From IMG/VR virus record IMGVR_UViG_2616645027_000001: a stretch of 57,742 bases of DNA; one strand, given 5' to 3'. The translations under genes were made by a program, and so were the position numbers. Source of the DNA: a virus. Shown here in pieces: positions 13,619-57,742 of the stretch. Within the stretch, counting starts at the first letter, position 1. The number at the start of each line of letters is the position of its first letter. A model generated the notes under the pieces. It saw only the letters and a list, made by a program, of their open reading frames with translations, was not told the DNA's origin and ran no database searches.

Positions 13619-14185
13619 ATGAGCGAAAAAAGTATATTAGATATGATGGAGGAGGACGTAGAGACTAGAGCTATGGACCTTCCGAGCTCCGACAAGGTAA
13701 CTGACCTGTCGGATTTAGTTGCACGACTGGACTACGCCGTACGCCAGCTAGGCGACCTAGAAGAGCAGGTTAAGTCGCAAAAGAAAGTGATCAAGAAGCT
13801 TTCGGAGCAAGACATACCTGATCTCTTCAAAGAGATGGGCAACATTAGGGCGTTCGAACTTGATGACGGGCGCAAGGTCAGTGTGTCAGAAGACTTTTCT
13901 ATTAGCGTGCGTAAAGCTGAGCAAGAAGAGTGTTTTAGTTGGCTCCGACTACACGGTAAAGAAGAGATTATTAAGCGTAAGCTTGCTGTCCAGTTTGATC
14001 GCGGAGAAGCCGCCGAGGCGCAGGCAGCAGCAACTTTACTGCTGGACAATGATTTGTCATTTAGTGATACTGAGTCAGTACATCCTCAGACACTGAAGGC
14101 ATCTATGAGGGGGATGATCGAAGAGGGGCTTACGCCACCGGACTCGTTCTCTTACTACCCCTACCAAAAAACTGTAATTAAATAA
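13619..14185 (+). CDS. Coiled-coil protein of the replication/recombination module, function unknown
   Basis: Track ORF placed between the helicase and polymerase genes. Confidence 0.55.
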   Translation: MSEKSILDMMEEDVETRAMDLPSSDKVTDLSDLVARLDYAVRQLGDLEEQVKSQKKVIKKLSEQDIPDLFKEMGNIRAFELDDGRKVSVSEDFSISVRKAEQEECFSWLRLHGKEEIIKRKLAVQFDRGEAAEAQAAATLLLDNDLSFSDTESVHPQTLKASMRGMIEEGLTPPDSFSYYPYQKTVIK

Positions 14186-14203
14186 AACTAGGATACCTTT
14201 ATA

Positions 14204-14968
14204 ATGAGTAAAAAAGAATTAGCAGAAAAACAAAACACTGAAGTTGCAGTGTTAGACTACGAAGCGTTGGCGGGAGAAGGTAATAACTTCGACCAAGACG
14301 ACTTAACGACACCGTTTCTAAAGTTGTTAGGTAAGTTGTCACCTGAATTAGATACGGTTGAAGGTGCTAAGAACGGCGCGTTCTACAACACAGGAACCCG
14401 TCAAGTTTTTGAGCAACCTGTGGTTGTAATTCCCGTAGCGTACGAGCGTCAGTTCCTTGAATGGGTGCCTCGTGATGCAGGCGGCGGTTTCAGGGGAGCC
14501 GTTGACAAGGACTACGCTTTGTCGCTAGAGCAGAACGAGAAGGGACAGTACCTGCACCCTAACGGTAACCTTGTGATTGATACACGATTACATTATGTGT
14601 TACAGGTGGTTGACGGCGACTTAGTGCCGTGTATTATCTCTCTGAAATCCACAGCTATTAAACGCTCTAAAAACTTTAACGCATTGATCTCCAACTTACG
14701 TTTACCGGGTAAAAACGGTAAGTTCAACCCACCTTGTTACAGCCATACATACATCGTATCAACGACGGATGAGCAAAAGGGGGAGGACAAGTGGAAGTTG
14801 CCGCAGTTTGAAATCGGTGCGCTGGTTGAGGACCCAGAAGTTTTTACCGCAGCTAAAGAGTTTCATGACATCGTTGTTGCGGGGGGTGCCAAGGTTGATT
14901 ATGCTCAGACCGAGGATAACGAGAAAACGGCACCAGATAACTATAAGGACGAACCAAACGAGTTCTAA
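14204..14968 (+). CDS. Replication-module protein, function unknown, 254 aa
   Basis: Track ORF. I could not assign a diagnostic motif. Confidence 0.55.
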   Translation: MSKKELAEKQNTEVAVLDYEALAGEGNNFDQDDLTTPFLKLLGKLSPELDTVEGAKNGAFYNTGTRQVFEQPVVVIPVAYERQFLEWVPRDAGGGFRGAVDKDYALSLEQNEKGQYLHPNGNLVIDTRLHYVLQVVDGDLVPCIISLKSTAIKRSKNFNALISNLRLPGKNGKFNPPCYSHTYIVSTTDEQKGEDKWKLPQFEIGALVEDPEVFTAAKEFHDIVVAGGAKVDYAQTEDNEKTAPDNYKDEPNEF

Positions 14969-49695: not shown

Positions 49696-49932
49696 CTATG
49701 CTCCTAAATAAGCGCTTCCTGCAAACGGAGCGCTAAAGATTATCTGTGTTGTGTTTAGGTCCACATGAACGACATCACCTACAACGTCACTGCCCCCTGT
49801 ATCTACTACATGTACAGCAAAGGGCCTTTTTCCTAAGTTGTGGGGGATTGTCCAAGTTGACAAGGGTACTGCCTGATTATGATCGTACCTAATCGAATCC
49901 TCTGATCTAGAAGGTATTAAATTTCCTAGCAT
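49696..49932 (-). CDS. Stand-alone HNLG-type beta-sandwich domain protein, 78 aa
   Basis: WTIPHNLGKRPFAVHVVD..GDVVHVDLNTTQIIFSAPFAGSAYL parallels the C-terminus of the 253-aa protein. Confidence 0.55.
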   Translation of the reverse strand: MLGNLIPSRSEDSIRYDHNQAVPLSTWTIPHNLGKRPFAVHVVDTGGSDVVGDVVHVDLNTTQIIFSAPFAGSAYLGA

Positions 49933-50073
49933 AAGGACTCCTTAGTGTAGTTATATAGTAAGAGTAGCAAGGGACCTCAATTCCAGTATGAGGGTCAGAG
50001 CTTCAGCATCCTGTGCTTCGGGTTAAACCTGTTTTCCTTTCTTTATTAGTGTGCGTCCGCTGCTACTCTTGTT

Positions 50074-50256
50074 CTAGCGTGCCCAGTCCGAATTATATCT
50101 AAACTGACCACATTGTTTTTTCTTAAAGGTTGATTTTCCTTTCTCACAAGCCTCTTTTCCAAGGCTCTTGTAGTTTTCTACCGCGTGGGTGCACGCAGCA
50201 CAAGCCCCCAACAACTTTCGCTGTTGGCGACGTATTAATATCTGTTCGGGGTTCAT
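50074..50256 (-). CDS. Small Cys-containing basic protein, 60 aa, first ORF of the late operon
   Basis: Track ORF with Cys pattern CAAC....C....C. Two palindromes lie just upstream. Confidence 0.4.
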   Translation of the reverse strand: MNPEQILIRRQQRKLLGACAACTHAVENYKSLGKEACEKGKSTFKKKQCGQFRYNSDWAR

Positions 50257-50461
50257 TTTAGGACCAATGTAAAACTATAAGTTTTACATTTTGTTGTTTT
50301 TGCATACTTATATGTATGCAAAGGGGGAATGTTACTAAACCTAGTTCAATAAATTGTTTTGTTCAAGGTTTATGAACACTATAGTTACCTGAACAGGGTG
50401 TTTTGGTTTATATAATGCTCAATAGTGGTACTCACAGTACCACTATCTTGTTATTTTTAAA

Positions 50462-50487
50462 CAAGGCCCGAGTAGTCTACCTACTCA
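50462..50487. repeat. 26-nt direct repeat copy 1 (CAAGGCCCGAGTAGTCTACCTACTCA)
   Basis: 25/26 identical to 50765..50790. Contains the internal hairpin GAGTAG-TCTAC-CTACTC. Confidence 0.8.
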
Positions 50488-50764
50488 GCGTGTCCGATCT
50501 TTGCCTTAAAGATACTCGGGGGAATACATTTAAGGCAAAGTGCTGACCTTGTTCTACTCACAACCAAGCTAGTAGACCTAAGCGACGCATATGCGTTTCA
50601 TACCCACGTAATCATCAGGCTTAGTTTAAATTTGGGAAAACCCCGCCAGAATTAACTGAACGGGGTTGCCTATGCCCACTAGAGCGGCAACTCATTTAAT
50701 GGCGCGCTGCATCGCCCATTAGCGTACGTGGTTTCGCTTTCCTCAGACTAAATGAAATCTAATT

Positions 50765-50790
50765 CAAGGCCCGAGTAGTCTACTTACTCA
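50765..50790. repeat. 26-nt direct repeat copy 2
   Basis: Lies 303 bp from copy 1. Confidence 0.8.
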
Positions 50791-50847
50791 TTAATAAATA
50801 ACCCAGAAGGTTGCGCATTGTTAAGAGGCGTGCCGGGTTTTGTTAAC

Positions 50848-50925
50848 TGGTCTGTCGGGAAGGATTTGAACCTTCGGCAACTCCGTTCCAAACGGAGGAC
50901 TCTGGCCTGACTGAGCTACCAACAG
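50848..50925 (-). tRNA. tRNA-Pro (anticodon UGG), 78 nt with encoded CCA
   Basis: Hand-folded cloverleaf. Acceptor CTGTTGG/CCGACAG (one G-U). D arm GCTC-AGTCAGGCCA-GAGT. Anticodon arm CTCCG-TTTGGAA-CGGAG. Variable loop TTGCC. T arm GAAGG-TTCAAAT-CCTTC. Discriminator A, then CCA. Confidence 0.85.
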
Positions 50926-51192
50926 AGAGATATTGATCAGGCTGGACGTTACCCCAGCTGGTGTTTTTATCAAATGCCGAAAATAACTGCAGGTAGTTAC
51001 CCTATTTCCCATGTTTCGACTAAATGTTAAGAGGCTAATGCTCACGAAGCACCTTACCTACACCCTCACTTTATGAGCGTTCCTACTTTCAACGCCGCTG
51101 ATCAAATTCTTTAATTCTAAGGCAGAGTTTCATCATACCCGTAAATGTGTCGTAGAATACATAGATTTGGCGTCAGAACCCTACGAAACACT

Positions 51193-51221
51193 ATTAAACC
51201 ATACTTTGTTACTTGTGTCAA
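51193..51221 (-). promoter_or_regulatory. Promoter candidate TTGACA-17-TGgTTTAAT (late leader / tRNA promoter)
   Basis: Read directly on the minus strand, about 270 nt upstream of the tRNA. Confidence 0.35.
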
Positions 51222-51712
51222 CACTTTATTTATAAATAATCTTTGCCATAGCTTAAAACTCTTGTATGGGCTGTCGGGGACCCGATAATTTTAGTTCATC
51301 AAGTTTTCGCTTTTACGAAAACGGTCTGTGCCGCTAGTGAACTTGCTAGGAATCCTCGGTGATTCATAACAACTCCACCAATGATCGTTTATTGCTCTGT
51401 CCTGTATCCATTGTGAATTTCCTAAGTAGTAAAACACTACTTTACCATGCCCCGCAATTAAACGCAATGGTTTGTACAATTATTTTATTCCATGTTCTAT
51501 ATTGGAACATTTGCTGCAACATTAATAAACACAATGACTTAGGTGTCGTTCCAAGTGATTGATAGTAAAGGGTCTTTGTGGTGGTACTATGTAAAGTGAG
51601 ATTATAGTGCGAAATCGGGCTCAATCTGCGCCCACGATGCTGGGATAATTCTAGAGACCCCTATGTTTCACGTGGAACATTAACTACTGTATAAATGAAC
51701 AGTATGTTTAGG

Positions 51713-51740
51713 CAGCAAAAAGCCAGCGGTTAAACTGGCT
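51713..51740 (-). terminator. Intrinsic terminator (second of a tandem pair)
   Basis: On the minus strand: AGCCAG-8 nt-CTGGCT followed by TTTTGCTG. Confidence 0.45.
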
Positions 51741-51765
51741 GGTGCTACGTGTGTTGTGTACAGGC

Positions 51766-51793
51766 AATAAAAAGCCCGGTTGTTATCCGGGCT
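51766..51793 (-). terminator. Intrinsic terminator ending the minus-strand early arm
   Basis: On the minus strand: AGCCCGG-ATAACAA-CCGGGCT followed by TTTTATT. Confidence 0.6.
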
Positions 51794-51824
51794 GTGTCTT
51801 ATTACTTGTTGTACTGTCTGTTAT

Positions 51825-51938
51825 CTACTCGCTGTTACGTCCTCCTAGTATCGCTATGATTACCCATAAGATACCCATGATTATGCCTGTTAGTATATTA
51901 TCTATGTTACCGCCTTTTTGTTTATCTATATTACGCAT
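51825..51938 (-). CDS. Hydrophobic peptide, 37 aa (below track cutoff)
   Basis: MRNIDKQKGGNIDNILTGIIMGILWVIIAILGGRNSE. Weak SD. The terminator follows. Confidence 0.3.
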   Translation of the reverse strand: MRNIDKQKGGNIDNILTGIIMGILWVIIAILGGRNSE

Positions 51939-51971
51939 TGTATAATCCCAATTTGTTTTATCGTTTTGCTT

Positions 51972-52508
51972 TTAACTTACCGTACTTGTCCAGTCGTTGG
52001 CCTGTCCTTCTAGTATTTCCATACTAGTAGCTATCATACTAATACAATGATCTAGTAATATAGCCTGTCCAGTACAGCCGCGCCCCCATACATTAAAGCC
52101 CAACAGCTCTACCACTACCTCGCCCTGCTCTCTCAGCTTAGTAGCGAGCCAGTCGGACACACCGTAATACTCGGATGGTTCTAAATATTCATAATCTAAA
52201 CTGTTTTCTTGAATACAATCAATTTGAGCTTCTTCTTTAGTATCAAAACTATCTCCAAGAAGTTCGTCGCTGTTTTCAGTATCTACCCAATAATAAGCGG
52301 CTTGATACTTAACTATCACATATCCGTTGTTATCTAAAGTGTAATTATAATCAATAGCTCTTGTGAGTTGGTAAACTTCGTCCTCCCAAGCACCGGCACC
52401 GTACTCGCACAGATGCTGTATTAATTGGTTATGATTACATATTACTTCTCGTTCTACTAAACGCGCTTTAATTCGTTGATTGGTTGTGCTGTCATAATCG
52501 TGTTTCAT
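51972..52508 (-). CDS. Hypothetical acidic protein, 178 aa
   Basis: Track ORF with SD context ACAGGAACAAATAAAATG. Confidence 0.55.
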   Translation of the reverse strand: MKHDYDSTTNQRIKARLVEREVICNHNQLIQHLCEYGAGAWEDEVYQLTRAIDYNYTLDNNGYVIVKYQAAYYWVDTENSDELLGDSFDTKEEAQIDCIQENSLDYEYLEPSEYYGVSDWLATKLREQGEVVVELLGFNVWGRGCTGQAILLDHCISMIATSMEILEGQANDWTSTVS

Positions 52509-55270: not shown

Positions 55271-55504
55271 TTAACGTCCGAGGTCTTTGATTTCAGTTGA
55301 AGTTAGATGACGATACCCCTTAAAGGTATCTGACGACCTAATAGTAATGTTATCTACATGTATACCTGTACTCTCATAGAACTCATCTAACAAGTCACCT
55401 ATGTTTGAATCCAATTCCTTTTTCAATCTACGCACCGTACGAATCGAAATTAAATCTTTCGGTTTTTCTTTTTGAATTTCCGTTTTTGAATTTTGGTTTT
55501 TCAT
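55271..55504 (-). CDS. Hypothetical protein, 77 aa
   Basis: Track ORF abutting its neighbours. Confidence 0.5.
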   Translation of the reverse strand: MKNQNSKTEIQKEKPKDLISIRTVRRLKKELDSNIGDLLDEFYESTGIHVDNITIRSSDTFKGYRHLTSTEIKDLGR

Positions 55505-56247
55505 AATTGGTTTTTGAATTTTGGTCCTTCGAGTTCGAAATTAAATGTGGTTATCGGTGTGTTTTCAAAGCGGTCATCTAAAACCACCTCTTTTTCCTGC
55601 TCGTGAACAAGGTAAGGTAGATCGTTTCCTTCGGGAAATACTTCTACATAATGGAGTAGCATTTGTAAGTTGCACACAAACGCTGCCCAATGTGGCTGGC
55701 CACTCTCATCGTCAATAGTCTGACCATTTTCGGCTATCTCCAAGTAATGCCTAGCAGCACACCCAATAGGGATCGACCATTTCATTCCTTTTACCCAATT
55801 CCAGCGTGTGTACTTAACGGACTCCCCAAATTCCCAAAGTCGAACAACGGGTTCGAAAACAAAACCTGAAACCCCATTCTCTTTATTGTATTCCACAACG
55901 TAGTCATAGACATGCTGAATCGCTTCAACCAAATGGACTTTATTTCCGGATAGTTGGAACTCACCTAGTTCGTGAAAAGCACCGCTAAGTAAGTTATCAA
56001 CATTTTCAATATAAGGGTAATCGGATAACAACATCAAACTGTAATCAGGTTTGCCACTATTAAAGCGAGCGCCGGACCCGATCTGATCAGAAGTTAAATC
56101 ACCCACATTATCCTTTTTCGAAAACTCACCTGTCTCTTTCGCGATTTTTACTTCAGCCGCTTGTTCAGGTGTCAAAGAAATGTCTTGACAAACCTCGCGT
56201 TCGTCAAGAGCCCCTCCAGTAAGAGGATCAATATTCTTGTTAATCAT
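55501..56247 (-). CDS. MazG-like all-alpha NTP pyrophosphohydrolase, dATP/dGTP diphosphohydrolase (MazZ/DUF5664)-like, 248 aa
   Basis: FNSGKPDYSLM...KYTRWNWVKGMKWSIPIGCAARHYLEIAENGQTIDDESGQPHWAAFVCNLQMLL fits the family pattern as recalled from memory. Confidence 0.45.
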   Translation of the reverse strand: MINKNIDPLTGGALDEREVCQDISLTPEQAAEVKIAKETGEFSKKDNVGDLTSDQIGSGARFNSGKPDYSLMLLSDYPYIENVDNLLSGAFHELGEFQLSGNKVHLVEAIQHVYDYVVEYNKENGVSGFVFEPVVRLWEFGESVKYTRWNWVKGMKWSIPIGCAARHYLEIAENGQTIDDESGQPHWAAFVCNLQMLLHYVEVFPEGNDLPYLVHEQEKEVVLDDRFENTPITTFNFELEGPKFKNQL

Positions 56248-57001: not shown

Positions 57002-57076
57002 ATGAAACCAATTGACTTATCAGTTAAAAGACTTAAAGATTTAGAGGCCTGCCAAGAAGGTATCGATTTGGTATGA
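57002..57076 (+). CDS. Leader ORF, 24 aa (MKPIDLSVKRLKDLEACQEGIDLV)
   Basis: GGAG SD. ATGA overlap with the YD-repeat gene start. Confidence 0.35.
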   Translation: MKPIDLSVKRLKDLEACQEGIDLV

Positions 57077-57741
57077 GTGACCGGGTCATTGTTAATGTGG
57101 AAGGGGACTATAATGGTTTTATCGGTTGGAATCTTGAAAGCCAAGGGATAGCATTTACTTACGATGAAAACGGGAACATGTTAACCTACACTTATCCCGG
57201 TGGTAATGCTTATTCTTGCATTTACGATGAAAACGGAAACATGTTAACAGAGACTCATCCCGGCGGTGATGTTTATTCTTACACTTACGATGAAAACGGG
57301 AACAGGTTAACAGCGACTCCTCCCGGTGGTGATGTTTATTCCTACACTTACGATGAAAACGGAAACATGTTAACAGCGACTTATTCGAAGGATGAAACAG
57401 TTTCTTACACTTACGATGAAAACGGGAATAGGTTAACAGAGACTTATCCTAGTGGTGAGGTTGTTTCTTGGACTTACGATGAAAACGGGAACATGTTAAC
57501 CTACACTTATCCCGATGGTAGGACAGTTTCTTACACTTACGATGAAAACGGGAATAAGTTAACAGAGACTTATCCTAGTGGTGAGGTTGTTTCTTGGACT
57601 TACGATGAAAACGGGAATGTGCTAACCTACACTTATCCTAATGGTAGGACAGTTTCTTGGACCTACAAATGGGCCGACAAAAACACGTTCGTTATTACAA
57701 AGGACGGGGATCAAATTTTAAAAGCGGAGTTTTCAGAATGA
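57073..57741 (+). CDS. Minimal YD-repeat (Rhs-repeat family) protein, 222 aa
   Basis: Eight 21-aa repeats with core Y-x-YDENGN-x-LT. No signal peptide and no toxin or core domain. Confidence 0.8.
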   Translation: MSDRVIVNVEGDYNGFIGWNLESQGIAFTYDENGNMLTYTYPGGNAYSCIYDENGNMLTETHPGGDVYSYTYDENGNRLTATPPGGDVYSYTYDENGNMLTATYSKDETVSYTYDENGNRLTETYPSGEVVSWTYDENGNMLTYTYPDGRTVSYTYDENGNKLTETYPSGEVVSWTYDENGNVLTYTYPNGRTVSWTYKWADKNTFVITKDGDQILKAEFSE

Positions 57742-57742
57742 A
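57666..57742. repeat. Terminal overlap identical to 1..77
   Basis: Exact 77-nt identity. Confidence 0.9.

Follow-up and report, generated by a model that had tools for sequence, protein, structure and literature searches.

The phage genome IMGVR_UViG_2616645027_000001, from the Joint Genome Institute (JGI) sample 3300002042, is represented by a stretch of DNA of 57,742 nucleotides (nt) with a guanine-plus-cytosine (GC) content of 43%, which is referred to here, at its whole length, as the window. Since its last 77 nt (57666–57742) are the same as its first 77 nt (1–77), it is a circular assembly of a genome of 57,665 base pairs (bp). The phage possesses a lambda-type head and packaging module, with a GpA-type large terminase subunit (TerL), a lambda-family portal, an S49 protease and an E-type capsid protein, a DUF1441 protein occupying the small-terminase (TerS) position, and a replication module with a family A DNA polymerase and a primase-helicase. 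The region of interest, positions 50257–51971, was considered in an initial annotation to be one 1.7-kb non-coding late leader. The surrounding genes are all on the minus strand, and the region is read along that strand, to which the features below belong unless otherwise noted. Fine mapping against relatives splits the region into separate elements, and on balance we favor the view that it is a mosaic, the core of which is an RNA-only moron carrying a tRNA and an orphan RNA that mimics the antitoxin of AbiF, an abortive-infection RNase. The relatives, designated by L numbers, are IMG/VR contigs collected via TerL, in which L001 is 87% identical, and L003–L008 and L010 78%. No near relative was found for 17.7 kb of the window by INPHARED megablast, IMG/VR searches with the flanking proteins of 178 and 253 amino acids (aa) gave no matches, and distant blastn of the region returned matches to tRNA-Pro genes only.

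The most informative feature of the region, which the earlier reading had missed, is an abiF-type RNA (50800–50839) that starts 10 nt after the CCA end of the tRNA and is probably an orphan mimic of the AbiF antitoxin. It matches the Rfam family RF03085 at 50837–50801 (37 nt, full-length, model positions 1–37) with 43.9 bits, compared with a gathering score of 37, and with an E-value of 8e-5 when the whole window is searched and of 3e-6 when the search is confined to the region. The guess in the initial annotation that the stretch may hold non-coding RNAs, for which it had proposed a covariance scan, is therefore borne out by that scan. The minimum-free-energy (MFE) fold is identical to the family structure, consisting of a 7-bp P1 stem (AACCCGG/CUGGGUU), a P2 stem (CGC/GCG), the loop CUCUUAACAAU and the 3′ bulge CAACCUU; members of RF03085 are defined by a P1 stem, a 3-bp P2, an 11-nt loop CCUCUYAACRAUG and a 3′ bulge starting with CAA. 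The family is also defined by an adjoining abiF/Abi_2 gene, which the RNA usually precedes, and this the window copy does not have. An Abi_2 open reading frame (ORF) is absent from all six frames of the window as searched with a local hidden Markov model (HMM), as well as from Pfam scans, and there is no ORF for 545 nt downstream of the RNA. Because the toxin gene is absent, the element is an orphan antitoxin-like RNA and not a toxin-antitoxin module. A second abiF copy was sought, and the search gave just a loop half-site with 12 of 15 positions matching at 51021–51035, where P2 cannot form; matches with three mismatches occur at chance level. The half-site, GCCTCTTAACATTTA on the minus strand, has the same first 11 bases as the abiF loop region, and may be either a decayed second copy or a coincidence. 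Rfam at permissive E-values over 49900–52100 additionally gave a Trp-leader match, which is just the terminator described below, and matches to BsrG and plastid families, which are noise.

The RNA is located in a promoter-to-terminator unit. Promoter P (51193–51221) comprises TTGACA, a 17-nt spacer ending in TGG, and TTTAAT, and L001 2746–2790 is identical to it from the −35 to just past the −10, with diverging flanks. The promoter candidate of the initial annotation, TTGACA-17-TGgTTTAAT, is thus present and identical in L001, although the consensus scanner makes no call there. The tRNA-Pro(UGG) with an encoded CCA end (50848–50925), also predicted earlier, is confirmed by two independent methods, ARAGORN and Rfam (RF00005, 58.1 bits). 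The cassette ends in an intrinsic terminator (50639–50672), AACCCCG...CGGGGUUUU, with a folding free energy (dG) of −21.3 and a z-score (z) of −4.0; this is the CCCCG/CGGGG hairpin of the initial annotation, which is followed by UUUU and has a counterpart homologous in position and sequence at L001 3921–3960 (AACCCCG...CGGGGTTTTTATTT). What is enclosed by the two differs: small protein ORFs in L001, and the tRNA and RNA hairpins in the window. Promoter and terminator being conserved and the cargo differing between relatives, the unit is, judged by its sequence, a moron, that is, an autonomous cassette with exchangeable cargo, and its promoter activity is predicted. The morons of lambdoid phages are likewise units of promoter, cargo and terminator between conserved genes. 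The window cassette resembles them in that a promoter and a terminator conserved with L001 bracket a cargo varying between relatives, but differs from them in that its cargo is RNA only (tRNA and small RNA), without any protein gene.

In bacteria, the abiF RNA precedes the gene of the toxin it controls. The abiF RNA, known as RCd22 in Clostridioides difficile, neutralizes AbiF in trans by direct binding (PMC12373285; PMC12737573), and AbiF is described, in the parts of PMC12737573 and PMC13064643 that cite Zilberzwige-Tal 2025, as an Abi_2-family HEPN RNase of a type III toxin-antitoxin abortive-infection system and as a proposed ancestor of Cas13. A scan of one genome per species for exact matches to the 22-nt core of the window copy (loop, P2 and bulge) found it to be identical at 44 bacterial loci, nearly all in Beta- and Gammaproteobacteria, the carriers including Rhodoferax, Undibacterium, Methylotenera, Nitrosomonas, Arenicellales, Thiotrichaceae and Porticoccus; the similarity to some of these loci spans 42–56 nt at 84–91% identity. 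An ORF of 300–320 aa typically starts at most about 40 nt from the RNA. Pfam assigns 19 of the 26 tested downstream ORFs to Abi_2, at least 24 of the 44 loci match a local Abi_2 HMM built from those proteins, and 42 of 43 bacterial copies end in a U-tract. The window copy therefore has the fold, the conserved loop and bulge, and the above-threshold score of the RNA known as abiF RNA, AbiFr or RCd22 (RF03085), and in its core it does not differ from copies that directly precede Abi_2 genes in Beta- and Gammaproteobacteria. Unlike those copies, it has no toxin gene and follows a tRNA instead of preceding abiF, its P1 sequence is different, and the U-tract that makes the bacterial copies attenuators is weakened. 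One of the bacterial loci, in an Arenicellales metagenome-assembled genome (OZ244840.1; L276 328–964), carries four tandem abiF RNA cores with a 205-nt period directly upstream of the AbiF gene (955–1899), an antitoxin array of possible interest for the evolutionary path from AbiF to Cas13.

Orphan copies of this RNA recur in many phages. At least 120 IMG/VR contigs (L011–L130) carry the exact 16-base pattern of loop and bulge, and 15 of the 18 viral loci tested with Rfam exceed the abiF threshold, with 39.8–54.8 bits. An Abi_2 ORF occurs in 2 of the 120 viral contigs listed as against 24 of the 44 bacterial loci (P = 1e-14), and Pfam found no Abi_2 among nine ORFs that immediately follow viral copies. 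Instead, the viral copies are associated with tRNA genes, one of which lies within 1 kb in 64 of the 120 contigs listed, compared with 0 of 119 random-position viral controls (P = 9e-25) and 1 of the 44 bacterial loci. The motif is found 2–8 nt from a tRNA on the same strand in 42 of the 120 contigs listed; in 38 of these it is just upstream, 30 times before tRNA-Arg(UCU), and in the other four it is just downstream, as in the window. Examples in phage tRNA arrays are L021 4310–4346, L013 2218–2254, L015 35–71, L025 2741–2778 and L028 519–555. The P1 stem covaries: among 99 unique viral copies with 61 distinct arm sequences, the longest helix is on average 6.24 bp when each arm is paired with its own partner and 4.41 bp when partners are swapped, the maximum over 200 permutations being 4.66 bp. 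A U-tract is present in 32 of 119 viral copies.

Cultured carriers include the Synechococcus phages S-CREM1, S-SRM01 and S-SZBM1, the mycobacteriophages LittleE and Redno2, and Aeromonas T7-like phages. In S-CREM1, the motif is annotated as 'abiF' and is located 4 nt before tRNA-Gly in a tRNA array. When a proteobacterial AbiF was compared by tblastn with 50,697 phage records, 80 records were found to encode a homologue, by name Firmicutes phages or satellites and eight 'Bacteriophage sp.' from human faeces, and the named cultured motif carriers are absent from these 80. Thus, there are two classes of phages, the Firmicutes phages and satellites with the complete module, and diverse others with the RNA only. 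Prophages of C. difficile have been reported to carry the complete AbiF toxin-antitoxin module (PMC12373285). A phage antitoxin mimic is recognized as an antitoxin homologue in a phage without the toxin that recurs elsewhere, and both properties are found here. Some viral copies are in other surroundings. In L014 (3642–5230), L023 (237–1825) and L303 (S-SRM01 184077–186391), the motif is intergenic and upstream of an OprB/SLH porin gene, instead of being beside a tRNA. In L048 (7597–8691) and in L016, where it is followed by a 286-aa ORF, it is immediately upstream of a tyrosine integrase gene; these loci may be prophage ends or integrative elements, and the RNA may belong to the element or to flanking host DNA.

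The remainder of the region is made up of elements of quite different kinds. At its upstream end is a gene for a 37-aa single-pass membrane protein (51825–51938), the last of the early operon, which is conserved at the protein level in L001 1636–1758 (...IMAILWLIIFVLGGRSSD in the window, ...IIMGILWVIIAILGGRNSE in L001) and in L007 5126–5284, and which was called as a gene by JGI (record L255). The statement that the stretch holds no credible ORF can therefore not be upheld, and conserved small proteins encoded in it had been named beforehand as a finding that would speak against a leader. Two tandem intrinsic terminators follow, as had been claimed, both being found by terminator scan and folding: terminator 1 at 51766–51793 (51793–51773 in the scan; dG −13.0, z −3.7) and terminator 2 at 51713–51740 (51740–51721 in the scan; dG −10.3, z −2.1). 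L001 has a tandem terminator pair with different stem sequences at the equivalent place, a pattern expected of functional terminators.

Next is a conserved non-coding cis element of about 236 nt (51431–51666, no strand assigned), which aligns with L001 at 67% identity over 244 nt. Its core is located at 51553–51637 (TCGTGGGCGCAGATTGAGCCCGAT...CATAGTACCACCACAAA), and 72–85 nt of it are 78–81% identical in L004, L006, L007, L008 and L010, whose TerL is only 78% identical, with flanks that are not kept. The core is present in every relative whose contig reaches that position, and in relatives of the L007 type it is directly upstream of the genes for the 125-aa-protein homologue, TerS and TerL. 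The element is thus most likely, as a candidate identified by alignment, the cos or packaging-recognition site of the lambda-type terminase. The suggestion that the stretch could hold cos is upheld to the extent that a conserved candidate is present. The L005 contig begins within the core at GCAGAT|TGAGC and the L008 contig 34 nt upstream, at different bases, and a scan with an 18-mer of the core, which matched only the five known relatives, gave no contig ending at the candidate site from the other side. A scan with a 14-mer of the core gave almost only chance matches, which were reused as the random-position viral control described above. Inverted repeats of the TGTTCC/GGAACA type flank the core on both sides (51503–51536 and 51673–51706), possibly as sites at which proteins bind to the packaging region. 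In L001, the corresponding position (2108–2135) is taken by an ATTCC..GGAAT inverted repeat, followed by the shared TAAAATAATTGTACAAA.

Between this element and promoter P is the frame-broken N-terminus of a protein with a twin-arginine signal (51297–51367; MNHRGFLASSLAA..., with a stop after 22 codons). It matches, at 70% of nucleotides with insertions and deletions, the start of an intact 109-aa ORF of L001 (3409–3738; MNRRGFLATSLAACAAPAF...), and as the remnant of a gene intact in a relative it also contradicts the no-ORF claim. The 62-aa ORF with a TTG start that JGI called at 51479–51291 was judged to be spurious, as the conserved frame there is a different and broken one.

Hairpins are concentrated in the part that leads to the late genes. 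The 591 nt at 50257–50847 fold with an MFE of −194 kcal/mol (z = −8.0, none of 100 shuffles being equally stable), whereas the 265 nt from the promoter candidate to the tRNA fold in an ordinary way (z = −0.7), and hence the earlier description of the stretch as highly structured applies to the former part and not to the latter. The whole 57.7-kb window has 14 perfect hairpins with stems of 9 bp or more, and four of these fall within 444 nt, where 0.11 are expected (Poisson P = 5e-6). The perfect hairpins of 12, 11, 9 and 11 bp read earlier are all in place. The longest perfect stem in the window is that of a hairpin of 12 + 6 bp with a CCCC loop (50492–50547; dG −22.6, z −6.6). It is followed by a palindrome with 11-bp arms upstream of the late genes (50422–50446), the flanks of which are partly conserved with L001 4226–4262, by the palindrome TTTGCATAC-N6-GTATGCAAA (50299–50322), a candidate operator or late-control site that is unique in the window, and by another palindrome with 11-bp arms (50266–50290), which ends 10 nt before the first late ATG and is absent from L001. 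The palindrome at 50299–50322 is kept in L001 4293–4317 as TTGCATA-N8-TATGCAA, just upstream of the same gene. Downstream of the cassette terminator, L001 shares short blocks only, namely GTTTAAAAA..GGTAC and this TTGCATA..TATGCAA palindrome. The 26-nt direct repeats that had been noted are likewise real, occurring twice in the window where chance would give no copy: R1 (50765–50790), which forms a weak hairpin 10 nt after the abiF-type RNA, and R2 (50462–50487), which forms an 8-bp hairpin and abuts the conserved block GTTTAAAAA. Both were located by repeat search and folding; they bracket the cassette terminator and the longest hairpin, and could either be the trace of a recombination event or act as a signal repeated in the RNA. 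A metagenome scan for the repeat gave three unrelated, chance-level matches; this locus alone has the repeat and the palindromes, and no palindrome recurs elsewhere in the genome.

The first late gene (50074–50256) encodes a 60-aa protein with four cysteines, 82% identical in amino acids to its L001 homologue and with the same ATG. Between it and the gene of a 78-aa protein is a conserved structured non-coding element (49950–50073) of about 80% identity with L001, whose 11-bp closing stem shows one compensatory and one wobble change with respect to L001, and which may form a structured RNA where the late operon begins. The zone 50640–50257 may serve as a promoter or operator for the late genes, as a target of antitermination, or as an array that stabilizes RNA. 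A consensus scan, which is blind to activator-dependent promoters, found no sigma-70-type promoter between the cassette terminator and the first late ATG, so that the late genes may be read through from promoter P.

Some features elsewhere in the window are given here as context. The gene at 55501–56247 (minus strand; L007 1072–1689) encodes an N-terminal dATP/dGTP diphosphohydrolase domain (MazZ-like, PF18909) that is kept in relatives; no PurZ-like adenylosuccinate synthetase was seen among the large ORFs scanned in the window, and a link to a 2-aminoadenine genome is therefore unproven. A 222-aa RHS-repeat protein (57073–57741, plus strand) adjoins the assembly junction. Two proteins of the replication region (13619–14968, plus strand) match Pfam families named after gp33 and gp34 of the cyanophage Pam3, which hints at a replication module common to this phage and the Pam3 phage group. 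The GC skew gave no information on a replication origin in the region of interest.

How well does the idea of a late leader survive this mapping? It proposes that a constitutive promoter transcribes the leader and that a Q-like antiterminator gives readthrough into the late genes, as at lambdoid pR′-tR′, the tRNA and small RNAs being passengers. It is consistent with a promoter-like site and, about 550 nt further on, a terminator that is kept in L001, with the failure to find a sigma-70-type promoter from that terminator to the first late ATG, with the exceptional density of hairpins ahead of the late genes, and with the lambda-like head and packaging module. The pR′-6S RNA-tR′ region of lambda is a late leader with Q antitermination, and the window shares with it a promoter-like site, a predicted short terminated transcript, and downstream late genes without an evident promoter of their own. 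It differs, however, in that no Q homologue was found, in that the cargo is exchangeable, and in that no conserved −10-like pause element is evident, by eye, in the promoter-proximal transcribed sequence. A PHROGs search of the two upstream genes (178 aa and 37 aa) and of 20 further early ORFs, as well as Pfam scans, matched neither a Q-like antiterminator nor another regulator, although a divergent Q could escape such a search; an integrase was not found in the early ORFs either. Moreover, the promoter-terminator unit carries exchangeable cargo in L001, the hairpins are not conserved in L001, one palindrome excepted, and most are without U-tracts on the transcribed strand. The stretch also contains a gene and a cis element that are both conserved, together with the remnant of another gene, and is therefore not one leader. 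We thus consider this interpretation to be partly supported at best and, as an account of the whole region, unlikely: of the antitermination claim, the promoter-like site and terminator upstream of the late genes are in place, and a Q-like protein was not seen among the ORFs scanned. Antitermination through the hairpin zone is possible, the evidence speaking neither for nor against the Q type. For annotation, the lesson is that several elements may be stacked in what looks like one long "non-coding leader", here an operon end, a probable packaging site, what is left of a gene, an RNA-only moron and a zone of late control.

For the abiF-type RNA itself, the explanation to which we incline, on grounds of family membership and context, is that it is an orphan antitoxin mimic, co-transcribed with the tRNA, which would neutralize AbiF of the host. 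From the start of infection, host RNA polymerase would transcribe the cassette, beginning at the host-type promoter P. Excision of tRNA-Pro by RNase P and the 3′ tRNA-processing nucleases would then free the abiF-type RNA, with which the 3′ trailer begins; in most of the other phages, the RNase P cut of the downstream tRNA would set the 3′ end of the RNA. Infection would deplete the unstable antitoxin of the host, the phage RNA would occupy AbiF, and abortive infection would be averted. The co-encoded tRNA may additionally offset the loss of tRNA.

A less favorable view of the hairpin is that it is a decaying relic of a bacterial abiF 5′ region, acquired with or beside the tRNA by illegitimate recombination. 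Decay and rearrangement have indeed occurred in the region, as indicated by the remnant with the twin-arginine signal and the degenerate loop half-copy at 51021–51035; the relatives are without the cargo; and a core that is 100% identical to bacterial copies, together with a partly U-rich tail, would fit a recent capture. Nevertheless, the P1 stem of the window copy is wholly different from that of the bacterial copies and yet pairs over 7 bp, whereas decay would lose the pairing, and the orphan arrangement beside tRNAs recurs in dozens of unrelated viral contigs and in cultured phages with covarying stems, which argues for selection and not for accident. We therefore regard a mere relic as improbable. 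Another view, which we hold to be quite doubtful, is that the hairpin has a role in cis: it would signal the processing of the tRNA transcript, stabilize it or weakly terminate it, and would be unconnected with AbiF. The constant distance of 2–10 nt between motif and tRNA ends in phage tRNA arrays and the U-rich tail that follows the hairpin in the window are in line with such a role. However, loop and bulge are the same as in an antitoxin that binds a protein already identified (PMC12373285), 56 of the 120 viral contigs listed have no tRNA within 1 kb, only 32 of 119 viral copies have a U-tract, and the occurrence of the motif both upstream and downstream of tRNAs is at odds with a single processing role. 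That the RNA might be the antitoxin of an unrecognized toxin elsewhere in the phage, forming a phage-borne toxin-antitoxin or superinfection-exclusion module, is hardly credible. Temperate Firmicutes phages do carry complete AbiF modules (PMC12373285), and many ORFs of the window are without an assigned function, but no Abi_2 is encoded in the six frames, and the 545 nt free of ORFs after the RNA contrast with a bacterial toxin gene starting within about 40 nt.

Several points weigh against the mimic and temper our preference for it. We infer transcription, processing, AbiF binding and the counter-defence effect, and presume that the host carries AbiF. The −10 hexamer of promoter P has T instead of the key A at its second position (−11), and for this reason the site is passed over, uncalled, by the consensus scanner. 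The hairpin alone is not unusually stable (z −0.2). The window copy keeps a partly U-rich tail and could therefore be what remains of a bacterial attenuator. Neither the tRNA nor the abiF motif is present in the closest relatives L001–L010, and a cargo not conserved in the phage group gives no within-lineage evidence of selection; the same absence points to a recent, strain-level acquisition, which is typical of counter-defence cargo. As the viral copies were ascertained by an exact pattern, they provide no independent evidence for conservation of those bases; many viral loci are short, and one clade of cyanophages (cyanomyoviruses) probably predominates in the tRNA-Arg(UCU) subgroup. The local Abi_2 HMM, in turn, derives from one proteobacterial clade. 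Finally, a full-text literature search gave no orphan-antitoxin proposal and no tRNA linkage, but Zilberzwige-Tal 2025 and the abiF-motif supplement were outside it, and an earlier description is possible.

The proposed mechanism has counterparts. The pseudo-ToxI of phage PhiTE mimics the ToxI antitoxin and blocks ToxN (PMC3475682), and the window RNA is like it in being a phage copy of a type III antitoxin RNA without its toxin, proposed to act against an abortive-infection RNase of the host. The toxin here would be the HEPN protein AbiF, not ToxN, and a single hairpin tied to a tRNA differs from the tandem array of 36-nt ToxI repeats that is processed by the toxin; in addition, mimicry was demonstrated experimentally for PhiTE, whereas in the window we infer it. 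RNA anti-CRISPRs (Racrs), which are solitary CRISPR-repeat mimics in viral genomes (PMC10651486), are comparable as small phage non-coding RNA decoys imitating the RNA partner of a host defence nuclease, but they copy the repeats of CRISPR RNAs and sequester Cas proteins, while the window mimic would be aimed at a toxin-antitoxin RNase. The abiF small RNA of S-CREM1 belongs to the same Rfam family and is likewise inside a tRNA cluster of a phage, 4 nt before tRNA-Gly; it has been annotated, with its role called unconfirmed (PMC9964418; review PMC12197685), and those papers give the annotation only, without an orphan-antitoxin or counter-defence reading and without remarking on the tRNA linkage. 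RNA antitoxin mimicry is therefore already known as a mechanism, and what appear to be new are the abiF family, the tRNA linkage and the breadth of its occurrence. A hairpin from phage sk1's cos site, unrelated to the abiF RNA, has been reported to inhibit AbiF (PMC13064643), and this element of a lactococcal phage is the one AbiF inhibitor reported so far.

AbiF has recently been shown to be an RNA-antitoxin abortive-infection system and is a likely ancestor of Cas13, and the routes by which phages escape it are largely unknown. Toxin-less antitoxin RNAs tied to tRNA genes in many unrelated phages would represent a directly testable mechanism of counter-defence, and suggest a function for an RNA that has been annotated without explanation in phage papers, as well as a new reason for the existence of phage tRNA clusters. 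More tentatively, and with rather less confidence than we place in the window RNA itself, phage tRNA clusters and cassettes might be a general delivery platform for orphan AbiF-antitoxin RNAs, which would be cut from pre-tRNA and disarm the AbiF of the host. If this is true, counter-defence at the RNA level would account for part of what phage tRNA arrays do, a matter of long debate, and cyanophages, mycobacteriophages, T7-like phages and marine siphoviruses would face in AbiF a barrier that is widespread and of ecological importance.

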